Assembly (NCBI GenBank): GCA_020720565.1
Contig: DYOK01000006.1
Location: 1 to 32,041, forward strand
Reading direction: 5' to 3'
DNA length: 32,041 nucleotides
From: Acetofilamentum sp.
GTDB lineage: Bacteria; Bacteroidota; Bacteroidia; Bacteroidales; JAFGXI01
Shown piece after piece: positions 1 through 16,727 of this stretch. The notes under the pieces are model-generated. The model searched no databases. It was not told the DNA's origin and saw nothing but the letters and a program-made list of their open reading frames with translations. A program made the translations under genes and the position numbers. The stretch's first letter is position 1. Every line of letters begins with the position of its first letter.

Positions 1-31
1 ATGCAAAAAGTGTAAAGTATAATTTTTTCAT
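1..31 (-). CDS. 5' end of a probable secreted protein running off the window edge (MKKLYFTLFA...)
   Basis: Minus-strand ATG at 31 reads ATG AAA AAA TTA TAC TTT ACA CTT TTT GCA, a typical signal-peptide start (MKK plus hydrophobic run) after an A-rich leader. Only 10 codons are visible. Confidence 0.55.
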   Translation of the reverse strand, partial: MKKLYFTLFA

Positions 32-273
32 ATGGTTATGGTTTTAAATGTTTCAAGCGCATTCAAGTAATAAATGCAATTTATCCTTTATTATTAATAA
101 AGTGTAAATATACTTGATTTGGCGATAAAAAACCAAATCATTTTCTTGGTCTGATATTTAGTTTATTTTCTACCATATTTTATATCATTTTCTGTTAATT
201 AACAGAACGTAAAGTTAATTAAGAGCTATTTATAGTAGTGGGTTAAGTAATTTCGGAATTAAATTGCAAGTTT

Positions 274-414
274 TCATATCGGACAGCGATATGTTTTTGT
301 TGCCGATTTCGGAGCATGTCACTGTCAAGCCACGATGAAGTTTGAAGCGAGCCACAGACGTTGATTTCAGCACTATCTCGGCAATAAAAAATACCGCATG
401 TTACCAGTAGGCAT
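274..414 (-). repeat. attC-like recombination site (long imperfect palindrome) directly after the stop codon of 415-1086
   Basis: On the minus strand, stop TAA is followed by ATGCCTACTGGTAAC (R''-like core ending in AAC). Arms GCGGTATTTTTTATTGCCGA (397-378) and TCGGCAACAAAAACATATCGC (306-286) pair with one extra base. The site ends in CCG|ATATGA where GTT is expected. Confidence 0.7.
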
Positions 415-1115
415 TTATTCATGTTTTAAGTTATATCTGAGTCCAAAATTTACTGTCAACCATTTTGTCAACCAAGGATAATCCCAACCACCCATTTCAT
501 GTGCAAATGTGCCATAAGTTATTAATCCGGCATTTATTCTTGAAAAAAGGCTTATTCTTTCAACCACAACTGATTTTATTTCAAATTCAATAAATATGTC
601 CAATCCTATTCGATTATTTTTATTATAGGTTGATTCTGATACAGTCTGTCGAATAAAGTTGTCTGGATATGGTCGGTAATGTGTCAATTCTGTTTTTCTG
701 TCATAAAAAAAGTAGTAGTAAGACAGTCCCGATCCAATTCCTAAAGATGAATTATCATTTTCTATCAAATTGTGGCAGAAATTGATATGCAAGCCAAGTC
801 TCTGATTCTTGGAATTTATTTTATAAAAATAATACTCTGGAAATTGAGGACCATTACTTTCTTTATCTACATTTATGTCGTTATACAATGCGTCCTTTAA
901 GCAATGTGTGAAATGAAAAGAAATTCGATTTTGATTGTGGTTTTTTAAACCATAGCCTAAGTCATAACCAAATGCATTCTTAAAATCATTTATTTCAGTT
1001 GTGGTAAAGAGTCCTGATAATTCAAATGATTGTCCTGTCAGGGAGCAATAACTTATGGCAAATAATATGGTCAATAAATTTTTCAAATCTGTCTGTCTTT
1101 TATGCTTACTGGTAA
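280..1115 (-). mobile_element. Solitary integron-type gene cassette (single ORF plus attC-like site, no integrase in window)
   Basis: GTTACCAGTAAGCAT (1116-1102) before the ORF and ATGCCTACTGGTAAC (414-400) after it are reverse complements at 14/15 positions, as expected for the R'/R'' halves of a circular cassette. Confidence 0.68.
415..1086 (-). CDS. Probable outer-membrane beta-barrel protein (~223 aa), cassette-encoded
   Basis: A TTG start at 1086 gives the signal peptide MKNLLTILFAISYCSLTGQ. The protein has alternating aromatic/Gly beta-strands and a C-terminal barrel-type strand NFGLRYNL. The ORF-track ATG at 1203 lies inside a terminator stem and outside the cassette. Confidence 0.65.
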   Translation of the reverse strand: MKNLLTILFAISYCSLTGQSFELSGLFTTTEINDFKNAFGYDLGYGLKNHNQNRISFHFTHCLKDALYNDINVDKESNGPQFPEYYFYKINSKNQRLGLHINFCHNLIENDNSSLGIGSGLSYYYFFYDRKTELTHYRPYPDNFIRQTVSESTYNKNNRIGLDIFIEFEIKSVVVERISLFSRINAGLITYGTFAHEMGGWDYPWLTKWLTVNFGLRYNLKHE

Positions 1116-1119
1116 CTAA

Positions 1120-1127
1120 CAAATATA
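1120..1127 (-). promoter_or_regulatory. Bacteroidota housekeeping -7 promoter element TATATTTG
   Basis: Exact TAnnTTTG match ending 3 nt before the cassette crossover G (1116). No good -33 TTTG is seen. Confidence 0.5.
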
Positions 1128-1189
1128 AGGATATAAATAAATTACCCACCGCTCTCATTTTTATGTTTAACAGCAGGTTTTGTAAAAAC

Positions 1190-1228
1190 ATAAAAGAAGC
1201 CATCTACAAAAGGGTAGATGGCTTCTTT
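1190..1228 (-). terminator. Intrinsic terminator of the rpoBC-DUF3467 operon
   Basis: 15-bp perfect inverted repeat AAAGAAGCCATCTAC (1193-1207) / GTAGATGGCTTCTTT (1214-1228) with a 6-nt loop and T-rich tails on both strands. Confidence 0.85.
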
Positions 1229-1244
1229 ATTTCACGGATTACGA

Positions 1245-1553
1245 CTATGCTTGTCCCTTTGGTGTTCCAAAGTTTAATGGCATCATTGGGGCGGAGTCTA
1301 CTTTAATGGTACCATGAGTCGATTCAAACTTACGAATATTGTCTTGCAGTGCCATCATTAAACGTTTTGCATGTTCGGGTGTCATAATAATTCTCGACTT
1401 TACCTTTGCTTTGGGAACGCCTGGCATTAATCGAACAAAGTCGATTACAAATTCGCTGTGCGAGTGTGTAATAACAGCCAAATTAGAATAAGTACCTTCG
1501 GCAACTTGCTCATCTAACTCAATGTTAATTTGTTGTTCTTTATTCTCGCTCAT
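1245..1553 (-). CDS. DUF3467 family protein
   Basis: Motifs GTYSNLAVITHSHSEFVIDF and KVKSRIIMTPEHAKRL; usual position right after rpoC in Bacteroidota. Confidence 0.9.
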   Translation of the reverse strand: MSENKEQQINIELDEQVAEGTYSNLAVITHSHSEFVIDFVRLMPGVPKAKVKSRIIMTPEHAKRLMMALQDNIRKFESTHGTIKVDSAPMMPLNFGTPKGQA

Positions 1554-1555
1554 AT

Positions 1556-4500
1556 TTATTCAGAATCGGTATAATTAGCACTTACTAAAATATTATCGTA
1601 GATACGAGCCCCAGTACCAGCGGGGATTTTGTGTCCAACAATAACGTTTTCTTTCAAACCTTCTAAACCATCGACTTTACCGCTAATAGCTGCTTCGTTA
1701 AGCACTTTGGTAGTCTCTTGGAACGATGCTGCAGAAATAAAGCTTTGTGTTTGAAGCGCTGCTCGAGTAATACCTTGTAAAATCTGATTCGATGTGGCAG
1801 GTACTGCATCGCGAGCATCAACTGGTTTTAAATCTTTACGTTTAAGTTGCGAATTTTCGTCGCGTAATTTACGTGCAGAAATTATTTGACCAGCTTTGAA
1901 ATTCTCAGAGTCACCAGCATCTACTACTACTTTCTTTCCATAAATTGAATCGTTCTCTTCGAAGAATTCCCATTTATCGACAATCTGATTTTCCAAGAAG
2001 ATGGTATCGCCTGGTTCAACAATGCTAACTTTACGCATCATTTGTCGAACAATGACTTCGAAGTGTTTATCGTTAATTTTAACACCTTGTAAGCGGTAAA
2101 CGTCTTGAACCTCGTTAACGATGTATTCTTGAACTTTTGTAGGTCCTTGAATCGCTAAGATATCGGCTGGCGTAATGGCTCCATCAGAAAGTGGTATTCC
2201 AGAACGAATGTAATCGTTTTCTTGAACCAAAATCTGTTTTGATAAGGATACCAAATACTTTTTAATTTCACCAGTTTTCGATGTAATTACAATTTCGCGG
2301 TTACCTCTTTTAATTTTACCAAAAGTAACTTCTCCATCAATTTCGGAAACAACTGCGGGGTTAGAAGGGTTACGTGCTTCGAATAATTCGGTTACACGAG
2401 GCAAACCTCCAGTGATATCGCCTGCTTTACCAATTGCTCTTGGGATTTTAACCAAAACCTGTCCTTGTTCAACTTCAGATTTTTCGTTCACCACAATGTG
2501 AGCACCCACTGGCAAGTTGTAAGTTTTCAAAGTATCTTTCGACTTACTTACAATCAATAACTCAGGGTTTTTAGTTTTATCTTTAGTTTCGATAATTACT
2601 TTCTCGGTAAATCCAGTTTGCTCGTCCGATTCTTCGCGGAAAGTAATCCCTTGAATCAAATTTTCAAAAACAATACGTCCAGAAGTTTCTGCAATAATAA
2701 CCGCGTTATAGGGATCCCAATCGCAAATGGTGGTACCTTTTTTAACTTCGGAATTATTTTCGACATACAATTTAGATCCGTAAGGCACAGAGTGAGTCGA
2801 ATAAACCACTTTAGTTTTCTTATCAATCAATCGTAATTCGCCCATTCGACCAATAACAACTTTCGAAACTTCGCCTTGTTCAGAGGTTGAATCGATGGTA
2901 CGTAGCTCGTCAATTTCGACAAATGCATCATAATTTGATACGATACTGGAGTTGGTTCCGATGTTACCGGCAGTACCCCCAACGTGGAATGTTCGAAGAG
3001 TCAACTGAGTACCTGGCTCACCAATTGATTGAGCGGCGATTACACCAACAGCCTCTCCTATCTGTACTTTTCGTGCTGTGGCTAAATTTCTACCATAGCA
3101 TTTTGCACAAGCACCTTTACGAGCTTCGCAAGTTAATACCGATCGAATCTCGACTTGGTCGATAGGTGATTGGTCTATTAATGCGGCAATATTTTCTGTA
3201 ATTTCTTGACCAGAATGTACCAATACGTCTCCTGTTAAAGGATGAATCACATCGTGTACACTGGTTCTACCAACGATACGCTCATTAAGGGTTTGAACCA
3301 CGTCTTGGTTCTTTTTAATGGCTGTTGCCACAATACCTCTTAACGTTCCGCAATCGTCTTCGTTAATAATCACATCTTGAGCCACATCGACCAAACGACG
3401 TGTTAAATATCCTGCATCGGCAGTTTTAAGTGCTGTATCGGCCAAACCTTTACGAGCACCGTGAGTTGAAATAAAGTACTCTAATACAGAAAGGCCTTCT
3501 TTAAAGTTCGAAAGAATTGGATTTTCGATAATCTGACCAGTGGTAGCACCCGACTTTTGTGGTTTCGCCATCAAACCCCTCATACCCGAAAGCTGACGAA
3601 TTTGTTCGCGTGAACCCCGTGCACCAGAATCCAACATCATGTAAACAGAATTAAATCCTTGATTGTCAGATTTCAACTGATTCATTAATGTGGTTGTTAA
3701 GCTGGCGTTAACGTGTGTCCAAATATCAATAATCTGATTATAACGTTCGTTGTTGGTAATGAAACCCATGTTATAGTTGTTCAATACCTCTTCGACTTGC
3801 TCGTATCCATCTTGAACCATCGCCTCTTTTTCTTCTGGAATAATAATATCCCCTAAGTTAAACGACAGACCGCCTTTAAAGGCCATGAAATAACCCATGT
3901 CTTTGATGTCGTCGAGGAATTTAGCCGCTTTGGCAGTTCCCGAAACTTGAAGAACAAGAGCAATGATATCGCGCAACGATTTTTTTGTTAATACGGTATT
4001 AATAAAACCTACCTCGTCGGGTACATGTTCATTAAATAGAACTCTACCAACTGTCGATTCGATAATGGTCGTACCTTTTTCCCCTTTTTCGTTGTAAGGA
4101 TAACGTACTTTAACGCGAGCATGCAAATCTACAGCTTTCTCGTTGTACGCAATAATAACCTCTTCGGGTGAATAAAAAATAAGACCTTCTCCTTTAGCAC
4201 CAGGACGTTCTTTGGTGATGTAATATAAACCTAAAACCATGTCTTGCGAAGGAACTGTAATAGGTGCTCCGTTGGCAGGGTTTAGAATGTTGTGCGACCC
4301 CAACATCAACATTTGAGCTTCCATAACAGCAGCGTTACCCAAAGGTAAGTGAACAGCCATTTGGTCACCGTCGAAGTCGGCGTTGAATGCAGTACAAGCT
4401 AAAGGATGGAGTTGAATGGCTTTACCCTCGATCAATTTAGGTTGGAAAGCCTGAATACCCAGACGGTGCAGTGTTGGAGCACGGTTTAGCAATACAGGAT

Positions 4501-5800
4501 GACCTTTTAAAACATTTTCGAGAATGTCCCAAACGACTGCATCTCTACGGTCGATAATTTTTTTAGCTGATTTAACGGTTTTTACAATACCACGTTCAAT
4601 CAACTTACGAATAATAAATGGTTTATATAATTCGGCAGCCATATCTTTTGGCATACCGCATTCGTGCATTTTTAAATCTGGACCAACGACGATAACCGAA
4701 CGAGCCGAATAATCGACACGTTTACCGAGCAAGTTTTGACGGAAACGACCTTGTTTACCTTTCAAACTATCGCTCAAAGATTTCAAGGGTCTGTTGGCAT
4801 CTGTTTTTACAGCGTTCGATTTACGTGAGTTATCGAACAAAGAATCAACTGCCTCTTGTAACATACGTTTTTCGTTACGTAAGATGACTTCTGGTGCTTT
4901 AATTTCGATAAGTCTTTTCAAACGGTTGTTTCTGATGATAACACGACGGTACAAATCGTTTAAGTCGGAAGTTGCAAAACGGCCACCATCGAGAGGCACC
5001 AAGGGGCGTAACTCAGGAGGAATAACAGGAACGATTTTAATTACCATCCATTCTGGTCTGTTTTTGCCTTTAGATGCACGGAAAGCCTCAATAACTTGTA
5101 GTCTTTTAAGTGCTTCATTTTTACGTTGTTGCGAAGTTTCTGTATTGGCTTGATGTCTTAAATCGTAGGATAATACATCGAGGTTAACACGAGACAGCAA
5201 CATATGTAAAGCATCGGCACCCATTTTGGCAATAAATTTCTCGGGATCTGCGTCATCTTTATAATGGTTATCGGCAGGGAGACGCTCTAAAATATCGAGA
5301 TATTCCTCTTCCGATAAAAATTCAAGATACTTAATGGGTTCTCCATCGGCAGTTACTGCTCTACCCGCTTGAATAACTACATACTTTTCGTAGTAGATAA
5401 TTGAATCGAGTTTTTTAGATGGTAAACCTAATAAGTAACCAATTTTATTTGGTAAAGAACGAAAATACCATATATGAGCTACAGGAACCACCAATTCGAT
5501 GTGTCCCATACGCTCACGTCGTACTTTCTTTTCGGTTACCTCAACCCCGCAGCGATCGCATACGATACCTTTGTAGCGAATACGTTTGTATTTACCACAA
5601 TGACACTCATAGTCCTTAACAGGTCCAAAAATCTTTTCGCAGAAAAGACCTTCGCGCTCAGGCTTATAGGTTCTATAGTTAATCGTTTCGGGTTTGAGCA
5701 CTTCGCCTTGCGAACGCTCTAAAATTTCTTCTGGAGAAGCCAAACCGATACGGATTTTTGAAAAACTTTGGTTTGTTTGTTTATCCTTTCTAAATGCCAT
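1556..5800 (-). CDS. rpoC: DNA-directed RNA polymerase beta' subunit
   Basis: Catalytic NADFDGD motif, N-terminal zinc finger (CHCGKYKR...CDRC), LLGKRVDYS; 1414 aa. Confidence 0.99.
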
Positions 5801-5825
5801 GTGAAGGAAAAGTTTATGGATTAAG

Positions 5826-5849
5826 GGAGCAAGCCAAAGGGCTTGCTCC
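5826..5849. other. GC-rich hairpin in the rpoB-rpoC spacer
   Basis: GGAGCAAGCC-AAAG-GGCTTGCTCC, a perfect 10-bp stem with no long U tract on the transcribed strand. Confidence 0.6.
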
Positions 5850-5854
5850 TAAAA

Positions 5855-8800
5855 TTATTCTTCTAAATTGATACTTAGGCCTAAACCTCGTAATTCGTGC
5901 ATCAACACGTTGAACGACTCAGGGATACCAGGTGCTGGCATACTTTCGCCTTTAACGATTGCTTCGTAAGTTTTAGCACGTCCAATCACATCATCGGATT
6001 TGACGGTCAAAATCTCTTGTAGAATATTAGACGCTCCGAAAGCTTCGAGGGCCCATACCTCCATCTCTCCAAATCGCTGACCTCCAAAGTGTGCTTTACC
6101 ACCAAGCGGTTGCTGTGTAATAAGCGAATAGGGGCCAATAGAACGTGCGTGCATTTTGTCGTCAACCAAGTGACCTAACTTAAGCATGTAGATGACACCA
6201 ACAGTTGCTGGTTGGTCGAATCGCTCGCCAGTACCACCATCGTGTAGATAGGTTTTACCAAATTGAGGTACACCCGCTTTGTGGGTATAACTAGTAATCT
6301 CGTCTAAAGTTGCTCCATCAAAAATTGGTGTCGAAAACTTCATACCTAATTCCAATCCAGCCCATCCAAGTACAGTTTCGTAAATCTGTCCAAGGTTCAT
6401 ACGCGAAGGTACACCAAGTGGGTTAAGTACAATGTCAACAGGCGTTCCGTCTTCGAGGAAAGGCATATCTTCTTGGCGAACAATTCGCGATACAATACCT
6501 TTATTTCCGTGGCGACCTGCCATTTTATCACCTACTTTTAGTACACGTTTTTGTGCAATGTATACTTTAGCTAATTTAATAATTCCTGTGGGGAGCTCAT
6601 CACCTACTGTAAGATTGAACTTTTTACGTTTGGCTTCACCTTCAATTTCTTTGAATTTTAATAAGAAATTATTGATTAATCGAATAATCAAATCGTTTTT
6701 ATCTTTATCGGTAGTCCACTTAGTCGGGTCGATATTCATATAATCGATTTCTTGTAAGGCTTTAAGAGTAATTTTAGAACCTTTTGCAATAATTTCGATA
6801 CCTAAGAAATCGGTAATTCCTTGTGAAGTTTTTCCGTTTACAAGACCAAACAATTTTTCGATAAATACAGAACGTAAATCGGTAATTTTCGCAATTGCTT
6901 CGTCATCGATTCTATCCATCAATGGTTTCTCGAGTTTTTTCGACTTACGATCTTTATTGGCTCTAGAAAATAATTGTTTTCCAATGATAACACCTTGCAT
7001 CGATGGAGTGGCTTTAAGCGAAGCATCTTTCACGTCGCCAGCCTTGTCACCAAAAATTGCACGAAGTAATTTTTCTTCAGGTGTAGGGTCAGATTCGCCT
7101 TTTGGAGTAATCTTTCCTATTAGAATATCGCCTGGTCTAACTTCGGCACCAATACGAATGATACCATTTTCGTCGAGGTCTTTTGTGGCCTCTTCGTTAA
7201 CGTTTGGTATATCGGACGTTAATTCTTCAACCCCTAGCTTGGTATCACGTACTTCCAAGGTATGTTCCGAAATATGGATAGAAGTGAAAATATCATTTCT
7301 AACAATTTTTTCAGATATTACAATTGCATCCTCAAAGTTATAACCTTTCCATGGCATAAACGCCACTTTTAGGTTACGACCCAATGCCAACTCGCCATCT
7401 TGTGTGGCGTAACCTTCGGTTAATACGGTACCCTTGCTTAATTTTTGACCCCTTGTTACAATTGGAATCAAATTCATGCAAGTGTTTTGATTGGTTTTGC
7501 GATATTTTGGCAAATTATATATGGTAGCTTCGTCGACAAAGGAAACAAATTTTTCTTCTTCGGTTCTTTCGTAACGAACTACAATTTTATTAGCATCAAC
7601 GTACTCAACAACGCCATCGCCTTCAGCTACAATCTGAATACGAGAATCGTGAATCACATGACGTTCGATACCCGTTCCAACAATTGGAGATTCTGCTTTG
7701 AGCAACGGTACAGCTTGACGCATCATGTTTGATCCCATCAATGCACGGTTCGCATCATCATGTTCCAAAAAAGGAATTAAAGAGGCTGCAATTGAAGCGA
7801 TCTGATTAGGTGCAACGTCCATAAGTGCAACTTCTTCGGGAGTCGAAACTGGGAAATCTCCGTTGAAACGAGATTTGATACGATTATTTAAGAAGTTACC
7901 ATGATCGTCAATTGCGGCATTGGCTTGTGCAATAACTACACCTTCTTCGTTTTCGGCACTCAAATAAACCGTATTAGAATCCTCTAAATTGACCACTCCT
8001 GTTTCAACTTTACGGTAGGGAGTTTCGATAAAACCTAACACATTAATTTTAGCATAAACGCACAACGAAGAAATCAAACCAATATTGGGTCCTTCAGGAG
8101 TTTCGATGGGGCACAAACGTCCATAGTGTGTATAGTGAACGTCACGAACCTCGAAACCTGCACGCTCTCTCGATAAACCACCTGGTCCGAGTGCAGACAA
8201 ACGACGTTTATGAGTCATTTCTGCCAATGGATTGGTTTGATCCATAAACTGAGACAGCTGATTGGTACCAAAGAACGAATTAATAACTGAAGATAAGGTT
8301 CTTGAATTAATCAAATCGACTGGTGTAAACACCTCGTTATCACGTACATTCATGCGTTCGCGAATGGTACGAGCCATACGAGCTAAACCTACGCCAAACT
8401 GGTTGGCCAATTGCTCGCCAACTGTTCGTACACGGCGATTACTTAAGTGGTCGATATCATCTACCACCGTTTTGTCGTTGATTAATTGAATAAGATACTT
8501 AATAATTTCTATGATGTCAGCTTTGGTTAAAATACTCACATCCATTTCGACATTAAGACCTAATTTTTTATTTATACGATAACGACCTACGTCACCTAAA
8601 TCGTAACGTTTATCAGAGAAAAATAGTTTATCAAATACGTCACGAGCAGTAGCCTCATCTGGTGGTTCAGAATTACGCAACTGTCGATAAATATGCATTA
8701 CTGCTTCTTTTTCCGAGTTACAAGGGTCTTTTTGTAATGTATTATATATTATTGCAAAGTCAGATGTATTAACATCTTCTTTGTGTAATAAAATCGATTT

Positions 8801-9667
8801 TACACCTGCATCAACAATAAGATCGATATGATCTTTATCGAGAATGGTTTCGCGATCGATAATCAATTCGTTACGTTCGATAGATACCAATTCACCAGTA
8901 TCTTCGTCGACGAAGTCTTCGATCCAAGATTTTAAAACTCGAGCAGCAAGTCTACGACCCACTACTTTTTTAAGTCCAGTTTTGGACACTTTGAACTCGT
9001 CGGCCAAATTAAAAATTTCGAGGATATCTTTATCACTCTCGTAACCGATTGCACGAAGCAAGGTAGTTACAGGTAATTTTTTCTTACGATCGATATAAGC
9101 GTACATCACATTATTAATGTCAGTAGCAAATTCAATCCAAGAACCTCTAAAAGGGATAATACGTGCCGAGTAAAGTGTTGTACCATTGGCATGGACATTT
9201 TGGCCAAAAAATACACCAGGAGAACGGTGTAATTGGGACACAACAATACGTTCAGCACCGTTAATCACAAAGCTACCAGCAGGAGTCATATATGGCACAG
9301 TACCCAAGTAAACATCTTGGATAACAGTTTCGAAATCTTCGTGATCTTCGTCTGTACAATATAACTTTAGCTTAGCTTTGAGCGGCACACTGTACGTGAG
9401 TCCTCTGTCGATACATTCGTCAATTGAATAACGAGGCGGTTCGACTTGATAGTCCAAAAACTCTAATACAAAGTTATTTCGGGTATCGGAAATTGGAAAG
9501 TTCTCGGCAAAAACTTGATACAATCCCTCGTGTTTACGTTTTTCGGAAGTTGTATCTTGTTGGAAAAAATCTGCAAATGATTTTAATTGAACCTCGAGAA
9601 AATCGGGATAGTTCAATTTCTTTTTAATCGAAGCAAAATCGATTCTTTCGTGACTTGTTATTGGCAT
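5855..9667 (-). CDS. rpoB: DNA-directed RNA polymerase beta subunit
   Basis: [41 protein letters not shown] and GGQRFGEME motifs; 1270 aa. Confidence 0.99.
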
Positions 9668-9703
9668 TTTAGAATATTTTAAAGAACTTAAAGAAATAAC
9701 GAC

Positions 9704-9736
9704 AAAAGGTTTAGAACCCTAAACAGGTTCTAAACC
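9704..9736 (-). terminator. Terminator/attenuator between rplL and rpoB
   Basis: 11-bp stem GGTTTAGAACC (9708-9718) / GGTTCTAAACC (9726-9736) followed by TTTT on the minus strand; same position as the known rplL-rpoB attenuator. Confidence 0.75.
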
Positions 9737-9759
9737 CCTAAATATTGTAAAAGATACAA

Positions 9760-10131
9760 TTATTTAAGTTCAACTTCTGCTCCTGCTTCTTCAAGTTTAG
9801 CTTTCAATGATTCAGCTTCTTCTTTAGAGCAACCTTCTTTAATGGCTTTAGGTGCAGCGTCAACTACTTCTTTAGCTTCTTTTAATCCAAGACCAGTTAA
9901 TTCTTTAACTAATTTTACTACTTGTAACTTTGCAGCACCACCGTTAACAAGAATTACATCGAATTCAGTTTTTTCGGCAACAGCGGCACCAGCAGCAGCA
10001 GCAGGAGCAGCTACTACAGCAGCAGCAGCAGGTTCAATACCGTACTCATCTTTAAGTACATTAGCTAACTCGTTTACTTCCTTAACAGTTAAATTAACCA
10101 ATTCTTCTGCAAGTTTTTTAATATCTGCCAT
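9760..10131 (-). CDS. rplL: 50S ribosomal protein L7/L12
   Basis: Ala-rich hinge, [23 protein letters not shown]. Confidence 0.99.
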
Positions 10132-10161
10132 TTTATAAAAATTTATTTATTTCTACTTTAA

Positions 10162-10686
10162 TTATTTTTCAGCTCTTTCTTGTAATGTTTTAACTAGGCC
10201 ACCAATAGTATTGGGTGCTGATTGTAATGCTCCAAGTACATTTTTGATAGGAGACTGTAAGATATTGATAATATCCCCAATAACCTCTTCTTTCGACTTG
10301 ATGCTAACAAGTGTATCAATTTGGTTGTCACCAATATAAATACCATCTTGTACAAAAGCGCCTTTTAAAATAGGTTTATCACCAGTTTTACGTAGTTCTT
10401 TGATCATTTTAGCCGGCTGAGTGGCATTTTCAGAGAACATAATGGTGGTATTGCCTTTAAGAATCGTGTAAAGTTGTTCGAAATCGCCATTGGCTTGCTC
10501 TAAAGCTTTTTTGACTAAAGTGTTTTTAGCCATTACCAATTCAACATTATTTTCGTAACAACTACGACGTAGGGAGGTAGTACGTGCAGCATTTAAACTT
10601 TCGATATCTGTGATATAGAAATGTGCTGCATTATTGATCTGCTCGGTTAAGCTGTCGATAATGATTGTCTTTTCTGCTCTATTCAT
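10162..10686 (-). CDS. rplJ: 50S ribosomal protein L10
   Basis: KNTLVKKAL motif, size, and position between rplA and rplL. Confidence 0.97.
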   Translation of the reverse strand: MNRAEKTIIIDSLTEQINNAAHFYITDIESLNAARTTSLRRSCYENNVELVMAKNTLVKKALEQANGDFEQLYTILKGNTTIMFSENATQPAKMIKELRKTGDKPILKGAFVQDGIYIGDNQIDTLVSIKSKEEVIGDIINILQSPIKNVLGALQSAPNTIGGLVKTLQERAEK

Positions 10687-10697
10687 GTTGATTCAGA

Positions 10698-11393
10698 TTA
10701 AAGATTCATAGATTTAGGATCAACTTGAATGCCCGGGCTCATTGTAGACGATAAGTATATACTAAGTACATAAGTTCCTTTTGCTGCAACAGGTTTTAAT
10801 TTCTGTATAGTTTGTAAGAACTCGTGGACATTTTCTTCTATTTTTAAAGCCTCGAATGATACTTTACCAATATTTGAATGTACAATACCGTATTTGTCTA
10901 CTTTAAAATCGATTTTACCAGCTTTAACTTCTTGTACGGCTTTACCGACTTCCATTGTAACTGTACCAGTTTTGGGGTTAGGCATTAAACCACGTGGTCC
11001 TAAAACTCGACCTAGTTTACCTACTTTGGCCATAGCCGAAGGCATAGTAATTACTACGTCGAAGTCGGTCCAACCCTTTTCGATTTTTTCGATCATGTCA
11101 TCCATACCCACAAAGTCTGCACCAGCTGCGGTAGCCTCTGCTGCTTTATCGGGAGTACAAAGAACAAGTACTTTAGTATCTTTACCTGTACCGTGTGGTA
11201 AAGTAACGATACCTCTAACCATTTGATTAGCTTTACGTGGATCGACACCTAAACGAACTGCTACATCAACCGAGGCATCAAATTTTGCATAGTTAACTTC
11301 TTTAACTAATTTTGATGCTTCTTGTAATGTGTATTGTTTGTTCGGCTCAATCTTAGCGTTTGCTAATTTTTGCTTTTTTGTTAATTTTGCCAT
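10698..11393 (-). CDS. rplA: 50S ribosomal protein L1
   Basis: [33 protein letters not shown]. Confidence 0.99.
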
Positions 11394-11405
11394 TGCCTTT
11401 ACCTT

Positions 11406-11852
11406 TTAGTTAATTTCTGCAGGTACATTGCCTTCGACACGTAAACCCATACTTCGCGCTGTTCCGGCAACCATTTTCATGGCTGAACCGATAGTAAAAG
11501 CGTTTAAATCGGGCATCTTATTTTCGGCAATTGCTCTCACTTGTTCCCAAGTTACGTTACCTACTTTTTTACGATTCGACTCAGGTGATCCTGATTTAAT
11601 CTTGGCGGCTTCTAGCAATTGAACAGCTGCAGGTGGTGTTTTTACCACGAAATCGAAAGACTTATCACTGTAATATGTGATTAACACTGGTAATACTTTA
11701 CCGGGTTGGTCTTGAGTTCTGGCATTAAACTGCTTGCAAAATTCCATAATATTCACACCTTTAGAACCCAATGCTGGTCCTACTGGAGGAGATGGATTTG
11801 CGGCGGCACCTTTAATCTGTAGTTTGATAAAACCTAGTACTTCTTTCGCCAT
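11406..11852 (-). CDS. rplK: 50S ribosomal protein L11
   Basis: [19 protein letters not shown]. Confidence 0.99.
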
Positions 11853-11880
11853 AATTTATAATTAAAATAATTCAAGTTGA

Positions 11881-12432
11881 TTAATTTTCTTTTTCAACTT
11901 GTAAAAAACTTAGCTCTACAGGTGTTTTACGATTGAAGATTTTAACAGTAACCGTGAGTTTTTTCTTCTCATTGTCAACCTCTTCAATTATACCAGTAAA
12001 GGTGTTGAATGGACCATCAATAACTTTGACAGTTTCTCCAACGAAAAACGGAATGGTTATCTCTTCGGAACTATCAGAAAGCTCGTCGACTGTACCTAAA
12101 ATTCTTTTAACCTCTGCAGGCCTCAAGGGTACAGGCTGACCACCTCTTTCTTCTCCAAGAAATCCAATCACGCCAGTGATACTTTTGATAACGTGCAGTA
12201 CTTCTCCTTCGATGTTGGCTTCAACCAAAATATAACCAGGAAAAAAACTTCGTTCTTTACTAATTTTTTTTCCGTTACGAATTTGGTACACCTTCTCTTT
12301 TGGAATAAGTACTTGAGATACTTGATTAACGAGATTAAATGCAGCAACTTCACTTTCGATGAGTTCTTTCACCTTCATTTCTTTGCCACTAACCGCACGA
12401 ACCACGTACCATTTTTTATCGATATCTGCCAT
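11881..12432 (-). CDS. nusG: Transcription termination/antitermination factor NusG
   Basis: WYVVRAVSGKE, FFPGYILV, KOW motif GETVKVIDGPF, IFNRKTPVEL. Confidence 0.98.
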   Translation of the reverse strand: MADIDKKWYVVRAVSGKEMKVKELIESEVAAFNLVNQVSQVLIPKEKVYQIRNGKKISKERSFFPGYILVEANIEGEVLHVIKSITGVIGFLGEERGGQPVPLRPAEVKRILGTVDELSDSSEEITIPFFVGETVKVIDGPFNTFTGIIEEVDNEKKKLTVTVKIFNRKTPVELSFLQVEKEN

Positions 12433-12449
12433 GATAATTTTTTAAATGA

Positions 12450-12641
12450 TTAAAACATGGAATATACCACCTGCATAGCATTGCGGAAAGAGTAATCCAT
12501 GAGCGCGATAACTATCGCAATCATGAAGGAAGCAACCATCACCACAATACCACTACTTTGTAATTCCTTCCAAGTAGGCCAAGTCACTTTGTTGACCAAC
12601 TCGTTATAGGACTCTTCAAAATAAGCTTTTATTCTCAACAT
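12450..12641 (-). CDS. secE: Preprotein translocase subunit SecE (63 aa)
   Basis: ELVNKVTWPT motif plus one TM helix. Start moved to ATG 12641 because the longer ORF overlaps tRNA-Trp. Confidence 0.95.
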   Translation of the reverse strand: MLRIKAYFEESYNELVNKVTWPTWKELQSSGIVVMVASFMIAIVIALMDYSFRNAMQVVYSMF

Positions 12642-12655
12642 ATTGAATAATTTTG

Positions 12656-12728
12656 CACGGGCGGAGAGGCTCGAACTCCCGACCAACGGTTTTGGAGACC
12701 GCTATTCTACCAACTGAACTACACCCGT
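12656..12728 (-). tRNA. tRNA-Trp(CCA)
   Basis: ACGGGTGTAGTTCAGTTGGTAGAATAGCGGTCTCCAAAACCG...GTTCGAGCCTCTCCGCCCGTG cloverleaf; anticodon CCA. Confidence 0.97.
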
Positions 12729-12730
12729 AT

Positions 12731-12764
12731 AAAAACTCCTACCCAAAGATTTGAGTAGAAGTTT
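12731..12764 (-). terminator. Terminator-like hairpin after tuf
   Basis: Minus strand AAACTTCTACTCAAA-TC-TTTGGGTAGGAGTTTTT; the stem closes with G-U pairs only on the transcribed strand. Confidence 0.65.
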
Positions 12765-12777
12765 AATATTATAATAA

Positions 12778-13962
12778 TTACTTAATAATTTCGATAACCT
12801 GACCAGCACCAACTGTACGACCACCTTCGCGGATAGCGAAACGTAATCCTTTGTCGATAGCAACTTCGGTAATCAATTCTACAGTAATGGTTACGTTATC
12901 ACCTGGCATTACCATTTCAACACCATCACCTAAAGTAATTTCACCTGTTACGTCAAGCGTACGCAAGTAGAATTGAGGACGGTATTTGTTATGGAATGGA
13001 GTGTGACGTCCACCTTCTTCTTTTTTCAAGATATAAACCTCAGCTTTAAAGGTAGTGTGTGGAGTAATAGAACCTGGTTTGGCCAAAACCATACCTCTTC
13101 TAATATCTTTTTTATCTACACCACGAAGTAAAAGACCAACGTTATCACCAGCTTCGCCAGTATCGAGAATTTTACGGAACATTTCAACACCAGTACAAAC
13201 TGTTTTCTTGTTCTCTGCACCTAATCCGATAATGTGGATTTCGTCTCCAGTGTGAACAACACCAGTTTCGATTCTACCAGTAGCAACAGTTCCACGACCA
13301 GTGATTGAGAATACGTCCTCAACAGGCATCAAGAAAGGTTTTTCGATATCACGAGGAGGAATTGGAATCCATGAGTCTACAGCATCCATTAATTGCATAA
13401 TGCTATCAACCCATTTAGGATCGTTGTTCAATCCACCAAGTGCCGAACCACGAATGATAGGTGTCTCACCTTCGTATCCGTAGAACTCCAAAAGGTCAAT
13501 CATTTCCATTTCGACAAGTTCGAGCATCTCTGCATCATCAACCATGTCTACTTTGTTCAAGAAAATAACCAATTTTGGTACGTTAACCTGACGAGCTAAA
13601 AGAATGTGCTCGCGTGTTTGTGGCATTGGACCATCGGTAGCAGCAACTACAACAATAGCACCGTCCATTTGAGCCGCACCAGTAACCATGTTTTTAACAT
13701 AGTCAGCGTGACCTGGACAGTCTACGTGAGCGTAGTGACGCTTCTCAGTAGTGTACTCTACGTGAGCGGTATTGATGGTGATACCTCTTTCTTTTTCCTC
13801 TGGTGCGTTATCGATTGAATCGAATGAACGCAATTCTGACAAACCTTTGCTAGCTAAAACGGTTGTAATAGCGGCAGTTAAGGTGGTCTTACCGTGGTCA
13901 ACGTGACCAATAGTTCCAATGTTTACGTGTGGTTTGGATCTATCAAATTTTTCTTTAGCCAT
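12778..13962 (-). CDS. tuf: Elongation factor Tu
   Basis: [35 protein letters not shown]. Confidence 0.99.
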
Positions 13963-14037
13963 AACTTAAATTTATTTAACTACTTTTAACAATTTACTAT
14001 TTAATATCTTTAAAATCAATTACTTGATAAAAAAAAG

Positions 14038-14109
14038 AGCCAACGATGGGAATTGAACCCATGACCTTTTCCTTACCAAGGAAACGCTCTACCCCTGAGC
14101 TACGTCGGC
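14038..14109 (-). tRNA. tRNA-Thr(GGT)
   Basis: GCCGACGTAGCTCAGGGGTAGAGCGTTTCCTTGGTAAGGAAA...GTTCAATTCCCATCGTTGGCT. Confidence 0.97.
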
Positions 14110-14119
14110 TTGTAATAAG

Positions 14120-14192
14120 AGCGGGCAACGAGGTTCGAACTCGCGACCCTCAGCTTGGAAGGCTGATGCTCTACCAACTGAGCTACACCCGC
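14120..14192 (-). tRNA. tRNA-Gly(TCC)
   Basis: GCGGGTGTAGCTCAGTTGGTAGAGCATCAGCCTTCCAAGCTGA...GTTCGAACCTCGTTGCCCGCT. Confidence 0.97.
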
Positions 14193-14202
14193 TTATTACT
14201 CG

Positions 14203-14285
14203 TGGGAAGAGCAGGGTTCGAACCTACGTAGGCGTATGCCAACAGATTTACAGTCTGCCCCGTTTAACCACTTCGGTATCTTCCC
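14203..14285 (-). tRNA. tRNA-Tyr(GTA)
   Basis: GGGAAGATACCGAAGTGGTTAAACGGGGCAGACTGTAAATCTG with a long variable arm, ending GTTCGAACCCTGCTCTTCCCA. Confidence 0.97.
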
Positions 14286-14312
14286 GGTTATTTTTACTAT
14301 CTTAAAGAACTG

Positions 14313-14386
14313 AGCCGGTGGAGGGATTCGAACCCCCGACCAGCTGATTACAAATCAGCTGCTCTGGCCAACTGAGCTACACCGGC
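14313..14386 (-). tRNA. tRNA-Thr(TGT)
   Basis: GCCGGTGTAGCTCAGTTGGCCAGAGCAGCTGATTTGTAATCAGC...GTTCGAATCCCTCCACCGGCT. Confidence 0.97.
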
Positions 14387-14413
14387 ATTCCTTTTCCATT
14401 TTCAAAAGGTTTG

Positions 14414-14445
14414 CAAATTTATTAAATATTTTAATTGTAAACAAG
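14414..14445 (-). promoter_or_regulatory. Housekeeping promoter of the tRNA-tuf operon
   Basis: -7 TAAATTTG (14421-14414) and -33 CTTG (14445-14442) with a 20-nt spacer. Confidence 0.75.
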
Positions 14446-14475
14446 GTTTTGTAATCTTTTTTCTTGCTATTTATT

Positions 14476-14600
14476 AACCAAAGCAAATTCCTTAGTTATA
14501 CTATGGTAATAACTAAGGAATTTGCTCCCAATAAATATCGAAAAAAATTGATGGGATCACCCACTCTTGTTTATTCCTATTATACTTATTCAAGTGTAAC
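14476..14600 (-). ncRNA. Candidate ~125-nt small RNA
   Basis: Bracketed by the -7 element TACTTTTG (14614-14607) and the 18-bp hairpin; no convincing ORF. Ends are approximate. Confidence 0.4.
14482..14526 (-). terminator. Perfect 18-bp inverted repeat, probable terminator of a short minus-strand transcript
   Basis: AGCAAATTCCTTAGTTAT (14482-14499) / ATAACTAAGGAATTTGCT (14509-14526) with a 9-nt loop, in a divergent intergenic region where no annotated gene ends. Confidence 0.6.
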
Positions 14601-14823
14601 TCGTCACAAAAGTACACTTTTAAATTGAATTCGAAAGCATCTTTTTTCAATTTGATTGTTCCCTTTAGCTTAAAACTACCATTTTTCAATTATGATTTTA
14701 AGCCCGTTTCAACAACAGCACATTTCTACGCTTAGTGTTATTCTTTGTTCAAATGTTGTATCTATTTGTATTTCTTATCATTATATAATGATATTAAAAA
14801 TTTAACTATTTTTTATCAAAATT

Positions 14824-14868
14824 ATAGTACTATGTATTGCACAATACTATTGTTTGTATATATCTTTG
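14824..14868 (+). promoter_or_regulatory. padR promoter with overlapping palindromic operator
   Basis: Imperfect palindrome ATAGTACTATG-TATTG-CACAATACTAT (14824-14850) covers the -33 TTG (14837-14839); -7 TATCTTTG at 14861-14868. Confidence 0.7.
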
Positions 14869-14889
14869 CATTATAAAATTTAAAAGCGT

Positions 14890-15222
14890 ATGTCGGAACG
14901 TCAAAACTTTGAATCGCAAATTCGAAAAGGAATTTTGGAATATTGCATCCTCAGCGTTCTTGGGAACGAGAGGGCTTATGCATCAGATATCATAAAAAAA
15001 TTGAAAGAAGCTAAACTGATAGTGGTCGAAGGAACGCTTTATCCACTTCTTACCCGCATGAAAAATGCCGAACTTTTAACCTACGAATGGGAAGAAAGCA
15101 ACTCAGGGCCACCGCGTAAATATTATTTTTTGACTGCTAAAGGCGGCGAATTTCAAAAAGAATTACACCAATATTGGCAAGAATTAGTAGAATCGGTTGC
15201 ATTAATCACTCAAAAACAATAA
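14890..15222 (+). CDS. PadR family transcriptional regulator
   Basis: SQIRKGILEYCIL, EGTLYPLLTRM, WEESNSGPPRKYY. Confidence 0.95.
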   Translation: MSERQNFESQIRKGILEYCILSVLGNERAYASDIIKKLKEAKLIVVEGTLYPLLTRMKNAELLTYEWEESNSGPPRKYYFLTAKGGEFQKELHQYWQELVESVALITQKQ

Positions 15223-15227
15223 TCACC

Positions 15228-16727
15228 ATGAATAAAACTTTTAACGTCAACATAGCAGGCCAAGTGTTTCATATTAACGACGACGCCTATCAAAATTTGG
15301 AACAGTATTTAGACAATATTAAGCGGCATTTCGAAACAGAAACTGGAGGGCAAGAGATTGTAGCCGACATTGAAAGCCGTATGGCCGAAATATTTACAGA
15401 ACGTTTTGCAGGACGACGCTCAATAATTGAATTTGCCGATGTCGAAGCCGCAGTTGTAATATTGGGAAAGGTAAACGACATGGAATCTAACGGGGTCGAA
15501 GAAAATGGCAATCCTACGTCAAACGAAACTCAAGATACAGAAGAAAAGAAATTGTTTCGCGACATCGACGATAAATATTTTGGAGGCGTGTCGACTGGCT
15601 TGTCGCATTATTTTGGTTTAGACGCCAACATTATCAGAATTATATTTGTGATTTTGGCATTTAGCACCGCTGGGATTTTAATTTACTTAATTTTATGGGC
15701 TGCCATACCAGGTGCAAAAACGAATCTCGAAAAAATGCAAATGAAAGGCGAACCCATTACCTTATCGAACTTAGAAAAGAACATCACTAAACAAATAAAC
15801 GAGGTTGCTGATGGATTTAAAAAGAAAAATATTGGGATAACGATTAGCTCTCTTATATCAAGAATTATCAAAGGAATTGTAACAATATTAAATGGGATCT
15901 GGAAAATTGTCAGTAAGATATTTGGAATATTCTCTATATTAATAGGTATTATATTGCTTGCTATCATGGTTAATATTTGGTTTTTCGATGCTCAAGCCAT
16001 GGTACACATTAACGACAGCGAATTGGAATTTGTTGCGATTAAGCCTTTTGTAACACATTTTTTCCAACCCAATTCGAGTACCTTATTTATATTGACTACT
16101 TTGGGATTGGCCTTGATACCTATTATCAGCATGTTGTCGGTGGGGGTCAAAATTCTTTTGAATATCAAAAAATCGTTTAAAGCATTTTATCTAAGTCTAG
16201 GAATGGCTTGGTTTTTCTTAGCCATCATGTTGGCTTTTTACATGATACCATTTGCCAAGGAGTTTAAACACGAACGTGTCGTGACACAAGTTATCCACGA
16301 TTCACTAGAGCACTCTAAAATTTATGTACAGTTTAACGATAATAAGGCAAATCTAACGAACCCTCATTGGATATTATCGCTGTCGGATGACGCTTTGTAT
16401 ATGAATGAAAGTTCGACATGGATGCATCCGGAGATGGAAATTTTGGAAAGTGAAGACAGTTTATGGCATTTCGAATTGGTAAACGAATCGAAAGGAAGGT
16501 CGGTAAAAGATGCATTAAAACGTGCCGAATCTATTCAAAACTCAATGGTTTTTCGGTCGGATACCTTGTTTGTTAACGAATTTACAGTATTCCCTAATCC
16601 TTACCGTGGGCAAATGAGTCGATTAAAGATATATAAGCCATTTTCATCTGAAATTCAGAGCAATAGGCCAGAGCTGATTATTGAAGCACTTGAAGATTGT
16701 AACAATGATGTCGAAATGGATTTCTAA
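15228..16727 (+). CDS. PspC domain-containing membrane protein (499 aa)
   Basis: Start MNKTFNVNIAGQVFHINDDAY 5 nt after the padR stop; PspC motif LFRDIDDKYFGGVSTGLSHYFGLD; several TM helices; typical padR-pspC pair. Confidence 0.9.
   Translation: MNKTFNVNIAGQVFHINDDAYQNLEQYLDNIKRHFETETGGQEIVADIESRMAEIFTERFAGRRSIIEFADVEAAVVILGKVNDMESNGVEENGNPTSNETQDTEEKKLFRDIDDKYFGGVSTGLSHYFGLDANIIRIIFVILAFSTAGILIYLILWAAIPGAKTNLEKMQMKGEPITLSNLEKNITKQINEVADGFKKKNIGITISSLISRIIKGIVTILNGIWKIVSKIFGIFSILIGIILLAIMVNIWFFDAQAMVHINDSELEFVAIKPFVTHFFQPNSSTLFILTTLGLALIPIISMLSVGVKILLNIKKSFKAFYLSLGMAWFFLAIMLAFYMIPFAKEFKHERVVTQVIHDSLEHSKIYVQFNDNKANLTNPHWILSLSDDALYMNESSTWMHPEMEILESEDSLWHFELVNESKGRSVKDALKRAESIQNSMVFRSDTLFVNEFTVFPNPYRGQMSRLKIYKPFSSEIQSNRPELIIEALEDCNNDVEMDF

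Follow-up and report, generated by a model that had tools for sequence, protein, structure and literature searches.

A solitary gene cassette with an attC-like site behind the rpoBC operon of an Acetofilamentum genome: a probable product of an integron-like gene-capture system in Bacteroidota

The sequence analyzed here, referred to as the window, is a stretch of 32,041 nucleotides (nt) at the start of contig C133 (GenBank DYOK01000006.1, positions 1 to 32,041 of the forward strand) of Acetofilamentum sp., a member of the Bacteroidales whose assembly, GCA_020720565.1, comprises 2.85 Mb in 390 contigs. An 836 nt segment of its minus strand, positions 280–1115, is very likely a single mobile cassette of an integron-like gene-capture system of Bacteroidota, with a cargo gene that appears promoterless and a site of approximately 126 nt that resembles attC. 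The segment has exact boundaries and a natural empty allele. Its site belongs to a covarying family scattered over the genome, and in related genomes the same sites form arrays that adjoin a recombinase gene.

On the minus strand the cassette runs from TTACC... (position 1115) to ...GTCCG (position 280), which is exactly the segment skipped by a contig from metagenome run X11 (see below). At the upstream junction, positions 1102–1116, the G at 1116 belongs to the target side and is followed by TTACCAGTAAGCAT, which represents an R′-type half-site and an extension at the cassette 5′ end. The R″-type box, positions 400–414, directly follows the stop codon of the cargo open reading frame and consists of ..GGTAAC at 405–400 together with a 9 nt cassette-specific extension (414–406). 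The inverted repeat formed by 400–414 and 1102–1116 is complementary at 14 of 15 positions. A long imperfect stem follows the box, with an L″-type arm at 378–397, seen in the inverted-repeat list, the family alignment and the fold, and an L′-type arm at 286–306 that is one base longer than its partner. The inner part of this stem, 294–306 with 378–390, extends over 13 nt (92%), and pairing continues outward to about 286/397 with one mismatch and one extra base. The initial annotation of this DNA, made from the sequence alone, had pointed to both the 14/15 complementarity and the long imperfect hairpin, and the inverted-repeat listing and the fold bear it out.

The downstream junction, positions 274–280, shows G (280) as the last cassette base and ATATGA (279–274) as target sequence. 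The element thus ends ...GTCCG before ATATGA on the minus strand, giving G|AT, as had been noted at the outset, where most copies of the site have G|TT. Homology to other copies begins at 280 in BLAST comparisons and stops at 405, and loose contig ends are found at 402–406 in the metagenome runs. The conserved core lies at 280–405; the covariance model of the site, designated R1, matches 274–407 of the minus strand with 129.6 bits and an E-value of 1.1e-30. A separate 7-base-pair (bp) hairpin within 275–293 (275–281 with 287–293), made by the last part of the L′ arm together with the target flank, competes with the outer long stem in the minimum-energy fold of the integrated window copy. This copy has a T in the L′ arm where most copies have C.

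The empty allele was looked for in Logan contigs of four public metagenome runs (X11, X16, X15, and X3), which were aligned to window positions 1–2600 at 90% likeness. One X11 contig joins position 279 to 1116 and skips 836 nt, with a depth of 3.81, a shorter side of 35 nt and one ambiguous base at the joint. A G is expected where crossover takes place, and the ambiguous base is this G; the joint thus lies at G, in line with exchange between G and TT. For the empty site the sequence is ...TTAG|ATATGA..., which fits a 5′-GWT-3′ target cut after G. The prediction that removal of 280–1115 would rebuild the empty site is matched by this junction, and the proposed use of a secondary GWT site agrees with the published rule (see below). 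The occupied form is present in X11 as well, with depths of about 9–17, and of about 6–9 where both junctions are crossed and about 14 in the cassette interior. The 279 to 1116 joint was not found in runs X16, X15, and X3, where the listed contigs of the occupied form cross one or both junctions (both in X3). Joints 710 to 915 and 1845 to 2568, with shorter sides of 20–21 nt, were treated as cross-mapping. No circular-form junction was among the listed joints, but contigs would rarely show one. A metagenome-contig scan for the left flank of the insertion gave no matches and no extra alleles. Near-identical sequence occurs in metagenome runs that represent four or more studies or sample sets, from soil, biofilm, and cave. 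In the relatives, the gene that follows DUF3467 at the rpoBC locus differs in five of five cases, and therefore synteny offers no empty-site comparison.

The initial annotation held that a hairpin unique to this place would refute a cassette; the hairpin is not unique. BLAST with window 280–405 gives four copies in all in the source genome, including those on contigs C36 (88% identity), C40 (92%, truncated where the contig ends) and C32 (84% across the loop), and the site is also present in 17 of 61 related genomes. A typical copy, oriented with the open reading frame, consists of a box ending in AAC, a few unpaired bases, an arm of about 20 nt, a partly conserved loop, the complementary arm, 4–6 unpaired bases, and G|TT. 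RNAalifold, applied to 21 aligned copies, gives 17 predicted pairs; compensatory changes are found in 15 of the 17, and 313 of 357 pair cells are Watson-Crick. By these changes in L″ and L′ the stem is maintained by structure and not by sequence, and it is family-level covariation that carries the structural claim. A scan of window positions 1–1600 against Rfam (E ≤ 10) showed no match in 274–414.

The R1 model was built on the 21-copy alignment and was used at E ≤ 0.001 for a census of the order. There are 21 R1 matches in the source genome on 21 contigs, and no contig has two; the number of family members in this genome is put at 19–21. The one-site contigs include C297, where the site is situated at 10.3 kb of 16 kb, and C117, which extends 33 kb beyond its site. 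The open reading frames that flank scattered sites resemble housekeeping genes, as judged from their sequences. R1 matches are found in 51 of 61 genomes of the order, with 1 to 39 per genome. G035, which is a single contig, has eight of its 15 R1 matches in one region and the other seven at six distant places. Read by eye, the ends of the 21 copies in the source genome are G|TT in 14, G|AT in three (C133, C143, and C104), G|CT in two, G|AA in one, and unclear in one. G|TT ends are found in 16 of the 21 aligned copies and in 10 of 10 singletons from G035 and G032, which are complete or near-complete genomes.

The site family shows a further property, in that its R-type stem is split between the two ends of the integrated unit. 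For 31 loci with enough upstream sequence, the word that precedes the element was compared with the upstream GTT of the same locus, and with the targets of other loci as controls. A complement with at least nine contiguous matches was found in 13 of the 31 loci and in 7 of 930 control tests; six of the 10 singletons of G035 and G032 show it. The C36 cassette provides a second detailed case of the split R′/R″ geometry that had been read from the window. It encodes a different signal-peptide protein, of 233 amino acids (aa), with no detectable similarity to the window cargo (E-value = 0.044), and the site follows the gene. Fifteen nt ending in GGTAAC are complementary at 14 of 15 positions to a word starting with GTTACC upstream of the open reading frame, and the other nine bases are unlike those of the window repeat. 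A circular unit that has a long R-type stem and is opened between G and TT would be expected to give this geometry.

The flanks of the C36 cassette are also informative. The first 55 nt of C36 also terminate contig C345, and this shared stretch reaches precisely to ...AGTT, where the cassette starts. The last features of C345 are an acyl-CoA dehydrogenase gene and a terminator. The downstream neighbor of the C36 cassette is a BadF-like gene, and in the same-genus genome G001 this BadF-like gene comes 111 nt after the same dehydrogenase gene, with no C36 cassette between them. Both the window and the C36 cassettes sit just behind terminators and are co-directional with the upstream operon.

No integrase-like gene was found in the 32-kb window and no recombinase match on contig C133. 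R1 gives one credible match in the window, the next best being 19.9 bits (inside the DUF3467 gene) and 14 bits. The early statement that neither intI nor attI is nearby thus holds. In the source genome the best match to TIGR02249, the model used to find IntI, is a 380 aa protein on the 1.9-kb contig C384. It scores 204.7 bits, below the cut-off of 265, with model positions 180–239 unmatched, and it passes the XerA-type model NF040815 (240.6, cut-off 220). Compared with solved structures, the C384 protein aligns end to end with XerA and in two pieces with VchIntIA (2a3v); it lacks about 43 residues of VchIntIA where the IntI-specific domain lies. Thus no true IntI with the IntI-specific domain was found in the source genome by TIGR02249. 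One of the 61 genomes, G031, does have a true IntI (325.8 bits, above 265), in which the IntI-specific insertion is visible, and this genome has 25 R1 sites; R1 gave no match on the 3.2 kb around the G031 IntI. In an alignment, two insertions of the G031 IntI are absent in all seven array-linked recombinases.

Arrays of R1 sites lie directly downstream of a C384-type recombinase gene and co-directional with it in G035 (17 sites in 13 kb) and G041 (11 sites). In G032 one R1 site adjoins a C384-type recombinase, and the G021 gene is divergently oriented and broken by stop codons. Of the 51 genomes with sites, 26 have a C384-type recombinase, and none of the 10 lacking sites has one, a co-occurrence that is only suggestive because the genomes are kin and many are incomplete. 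In a scan of named genomes, R1 sites adjoin the recombinase in 11 loci, all in Bacteroidota-labelled or unlabelled records; among the labels are Bacteroidales, Flavobacteriaceae, Winogradskyella, Aquiflexum, Psychroserpens, and Pontibacter. No R1 site adjoined a recombinase in the loci whose labels name other phyla. The initial annotation had suggested a Bacteroidota-type system that scatters single genes around the chromosome. The scatter stands, with 21 sites on 21 contigs, but the system is not without a platform, in view of the recombinase-headed arrays in relatives and the gene on C384, and its enzyme appears to be Xer-like and not IntI.

The array-linked recombinases, those of G041 and G035 among others, are 356–656 aa long. 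Their N-terminal part contains a module of some 45 residues, present in one to three copies and closed by a conserved W-x4-K/R-x-W motif; true IntI and Xer proteins do not have this module. It may be what reads the folded site. The G035 array (G035:C1:530000-548000) mixes sites of about 130 nt with G+C-rich sites (0.58–0.63) of 76 nt that score 37–43 bits with R1. Since both lengths are matched by the same model, one platform serves at least two size classes. The G041 array (G041:C3:8000-27500, at about 1100–16300) has resistance genes between the R1 sites behind its recombinase. Above the NCBIfam cut-offs are Tet(X) (861.7 bits), AadS (518.6), a class D beta-lactamase (271.8), a tetracycline ribosomal-protection protein (960.6), EreD (953.4), and an Erm methyltransferase (broad model, 227.1). 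The score of a Lnu(H)-like protein falls short of its cut-off, and the AadS gene with its flank is present twice.

The following sequence of events would account for the insertion. In the free circle, a probable intermediate, the first 14 cassette bases would pair with those immediately preceding the conserved element to give a 15-bp R-type stem, which would continue past a short unpaired spacer into an L-type stem of about 20 bp, the site being presumed to fold as single-stranded DNA. A tyrosine recombinase would cut the site after its terminal G and join it to the chromosomal G|AT, 77 nt behind the rpoBC-DUF3467 terminator; the candidate for this role is the XerA-like enzyme of the C384 type, without the IntI insertion. 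Such an insertion would parallel the attC × attG reaction of integron integrases. It would leave the TTACC... half-site at the cassette 5′ end and a hybrid, non-pairing G-ATATGA at the 3′ end. At G|AT the R-type stem is unable to re-form, which probably makes excision of the integrated copy difficult; the empty allele is therefore more likely to be ancestral than to be an excision product.

On the target side, 4 nt before the upstream junction, positions 1120–1127 of the minus strand read TATATTTG. Bacteroidetes-type −7 promoter boxes have the consensus TAnnTTTG. The TATATTTG sequence may be such a box, and this host element at the junction would then transcribe the cassette and its cargo.

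Several observations weigh against this interpretation. The empty allele is represented by one Logan contig in one of the four runs, at 90% likeness, which makes the evidence for it good but not overwhelming. The 15 nt repeat taken alone is not above chance. When 15-mers with no more than one mismatch and 100–1500 nt apart were counted, the window had 16 such pairs, and 40 first-order Markov shuffles of the window gave a mean of 7.4 and a maximum of 19. The window site alone also folds weakly (z = −1.84 on the plus strand and −0.85 on the minus strand). Comparison with other copies is thus what the case depends on, and the 14/15 repeat gains its significance from its anchoring at the site and from its recurrence among the 31 loci at the rate given above against the controls. 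The R boxes (GGTAAC / GTTACCA) match the classical consensus, RYYYAAC / GTTRRRY, only in AAC and GTT. Unpaired single positions occur on both arms, no extrahelical bases could be assigned, and the extra L′ base is a feature of the window's subfamily. Classical attC sites act via the bottom strand, and here the G.T wobbles favor the top strand (16 vs 5 cells). With respect to the enzyme, the recombinase is not encoded in the window, the C384 contig has no R1 site, and 25 of the 51 site-bearing genomes have no such recombinase at E ≤ 1e-50. Finally, five distant homologues of the cargo protein (27–36% identity) in other genomes have no R1 site at E ≤ 0.01; thus the gene family is not always cassette-borne.

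Other explanations of the locus can be set against a cassette of a Bacteroidota system. The layout has classical features, i.e. AAC ... GTT boxes, a long imperfect stem, a position after a stop codon, and a G|TT crossover, and an ordinary integron cassette could have been moved by a classical IntI that is encoded elsewhere, has been lost or acts in trans, with the Xer-like gene as a bystander. G031, which holds a true IntI together with 25 sites of the family, would agree with this. However, true IntI is found in one of the 61 genomes and not in the source genome (the assemblies are incomplete and absence is not proven), the IntI locus of G031 is without a family site within 3.2 kb, and arrays are found directly behind the Xer-like gene in several genomes. 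In addition, the single-contig G035 has 15 sites and no TIGR02249 match at E ≤ 1e-40. Mobilization by IntI is unlikely. A function of the 126 nt element mainly in RNA, as a stabilizer in the 3′ untranslated region or a shared terminator, with the remaining features coincidental, is very unlikely: an exact 836 nt presence/absence, the complementarity of the upstream word, the G|TT rule, and the arrays behind a recombinase would all be left unexplained, and Rfam gives no match. As an RNA role would have it, the element is always found after a stop codon on the coding strand, and G.U-type wobbles are more frequent on that strand (16 vs 5); it could well terminate transcription besides its part in recombination.

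The unit is repeated, dispersed and bounded by inverted repeats, which are also the properties of a small non-autonomous transposon with terminal inverted repeats and a passenger gene; a probable miniature element of this sort does occur in the genome, at window 56–173 (see below). There is no target-site duplication, however, just the one ambiguous base at the joint; one end lies 126 nt outside the repeat, and head-to-tail arrays adjoin a tyrosine recombinase. The repeats vary between copies but are complementary within each copy, which points to pairing and not to a binding site for a transposase, and a transposon is considered highly improbable. Bacteroidales are known for invertons, and the 15 nt repeats could be taken for the ends of an inverton that switches the barrel gene between on and off states, given that they flank the whole gene and that a promoter-like box lies just outside one of them. 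The polymorphism, though, is a precise absence of 836 nt and no strand-changing joint is listed. The deleted segment extends past one repeat to the end of the 126 nt element, and in every locus the repeat is asymmetric relative to the conserved element. An inverton is extremely improbable.

The cassette can be compared with known systems. Integron integrases insert cassettes at attG sites, which according to the available text of Loot et al. have the consensus 5′-GWT-3′ and are cut after G; lone cassettes outside integrons are there named SALINs, and 1847 of 2469 SALIN-bearing genomes have just one (Loot et al., 10.1101/2022.09.11.507474). As far as that text describes them, SALINs share with the window one open reading frame with one attC-like site, no integrase or other att site nearby, a GWT target cut after G, an intergenic position near a host promoter-like box, and an empty allele. 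They differ in that the window's site family and likely enzyme are not those of classical integrons and in that there are about 20 sites in the source genome, some of which end in G|CT or G|AA, outside GWT. The text of the IntegronFinder 2.0 preprint reports only one complete integron in Bacteroidetes (10.1101/2022.02.28.482270).

Classical cassettes show the same R″-L″-loop-L′-R′ anatomy with conserved AAC/GTT and a G|TT crossover. Sedentary chromosomal integrons have homogeneous attC families, such as the Vibrio VCR type, and a family of sites of about 125 nt across unrelated cargo, attached to promoterless single-gene units, is likewise shared. In contrast, R-type pairing here covers 10–15 bp instead of 7, the boxes fit RYYYAAC/GTTRRRY only in the triplet, and the array recombinase is without the IntI-specific insertion and co-directional with the cassettes.

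The arrays of the relatives also resemble rAID-1 clusters (for acquired interbacterial defence associated with a recombinase), reported in 226 of 423 Bacteroidales genomes (Ross et al., 10.1101/471110). In the published main text a XerD-like recombinase lies at their 5′ end, the short genes that follow are co-directional, and the repetitive sequences between genes are called "reminiscent of integrons" (Ross et al., 10.1101/471110; PMC12247911). The criteria given there are a recombinase more than 44% identical to BF9343_RS08045 and at least two co-directional downstream genes with repetitive intergenic sequences. The likeness is one of a recombinase-headed, co-directional layout. The window, with one cassette and no recombinase, does not have the two or more genes, whereas G035 and G041 do. 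According to the text of that work it is unclear how the arrays are built (10.1101/471110; PMC12247911), and a folded site, a crossover point, and off-array insertion are absent from its description, although the motif figure in the supplement may show the same repeat. In the open literature no paper was found that gives the Bacteroidales system a folded site or a crossover point or that describes its singletons outside arrays. The novelty of the present case is a solitary polymorphic insertion by a non-classical Bacteroidota system, with base-exact boundaries, a natural empty allele, and a genome-wide census.

The cargo open reading frame, positions 418–1086 of the minus strand with its stop codon at 415–417, encodes 223 aa with a TTG start and a signal peptide, and its homologues start at the same MKNLL. 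There are 19 homologues with 54–84% identity, none with a Pfam family, and neither the window cargo nor the C36 cargo belongs to a Pfam or NCBIfam family. An AlphaFold2 model from an 18-sequence alignment (predicted local distance difference test, pLDDT, 80.9) shows a signal peptide and eight long strands; a single-sequence model was discarded (pLDDT 38.8). The best Foldseek matches of the model are OmpX, the OmpA transmembrane domain, Ail, and NspA, with E-values down to 1.4e-6. The cargo is thus predicted to be an 8-stranded outer-membrane beta-barrel of the OmpX/OmpA-like type. A syntenic copy of the gene in relatives had been named as a finding that would speak against insertion; window 415–1116 has no match in five same-genus or same-family genomes. 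The cargo is present in six of 301 sampled genomes of the order, none of them among the same-family genomes sampled, and is therefore an accessory gene. A 22 nt inverted repeat (86%) inside the open reading frame, positions 507–528 and 1042–1063, may be due to chance in AT-rich DNA.

Upstream of the insertion, the minus strand carries rpoB (positions 5855–9667), rpoC (1556–5800), and the DUF3467 gene (1248–1553; Pfam E-value = 5.4e-34). The terminator hairpin of this operon, positions 1193–1228, is a perfect 15 nt inverted repeat followed by a T run and lies outside the cassette. Just downstream of the cassette, positions 56–173 contain a second repeat family of about 118 nt, unrelated to the site family. 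Its contig depth is 120–1083, as compared with 6–25 in single-copy flanks, and loose ends are found at 56 and 173. The 22-mer at 61–82 is present on eight further contigs of the source genome, and G007:C117 matches window 57–131 at 95–98%. At positions 1–31 a gene on the minus strand starts with MKKLYFTLFA and is truncated by the start of the contig. The region upstream of this gene took in both the cassette and the 56–173 repeat, which is probably a miniature inverted-repeat transposable element.

The locus yields for the Bacteroidales system the cassette boundaries, the crossover (after G and before WT), an empty allele, and a split-site rule, and the mechanism is directly testable with one enzyme, of the C384 type, and one 126 nt site. 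Standard integron finders need the IntI domain, which suggests that cassette-borne genes are under-counted in the phylum; the same sites in G041 bracket genes for resistance to tetracycline, macrolide, lincosamide, aminoglycoside, and beta-lactam antibiotics. It is conceivable, with somewhat less than even likelihood, that Bacteroidota possess a parallel integron, in which an Xer-like integrase without the IntI domain acts on long folded sites with R stems of 10–15 bp, lines up cassettes behind the gene that encodes it, and as a matter of routine also places lone ones at G|WT sites throughout the chromosome. If so, a sizeable share of the accessory genes of the order, those for resistance included, would be cassette-borne singletons that are gained and lost in natural populations.

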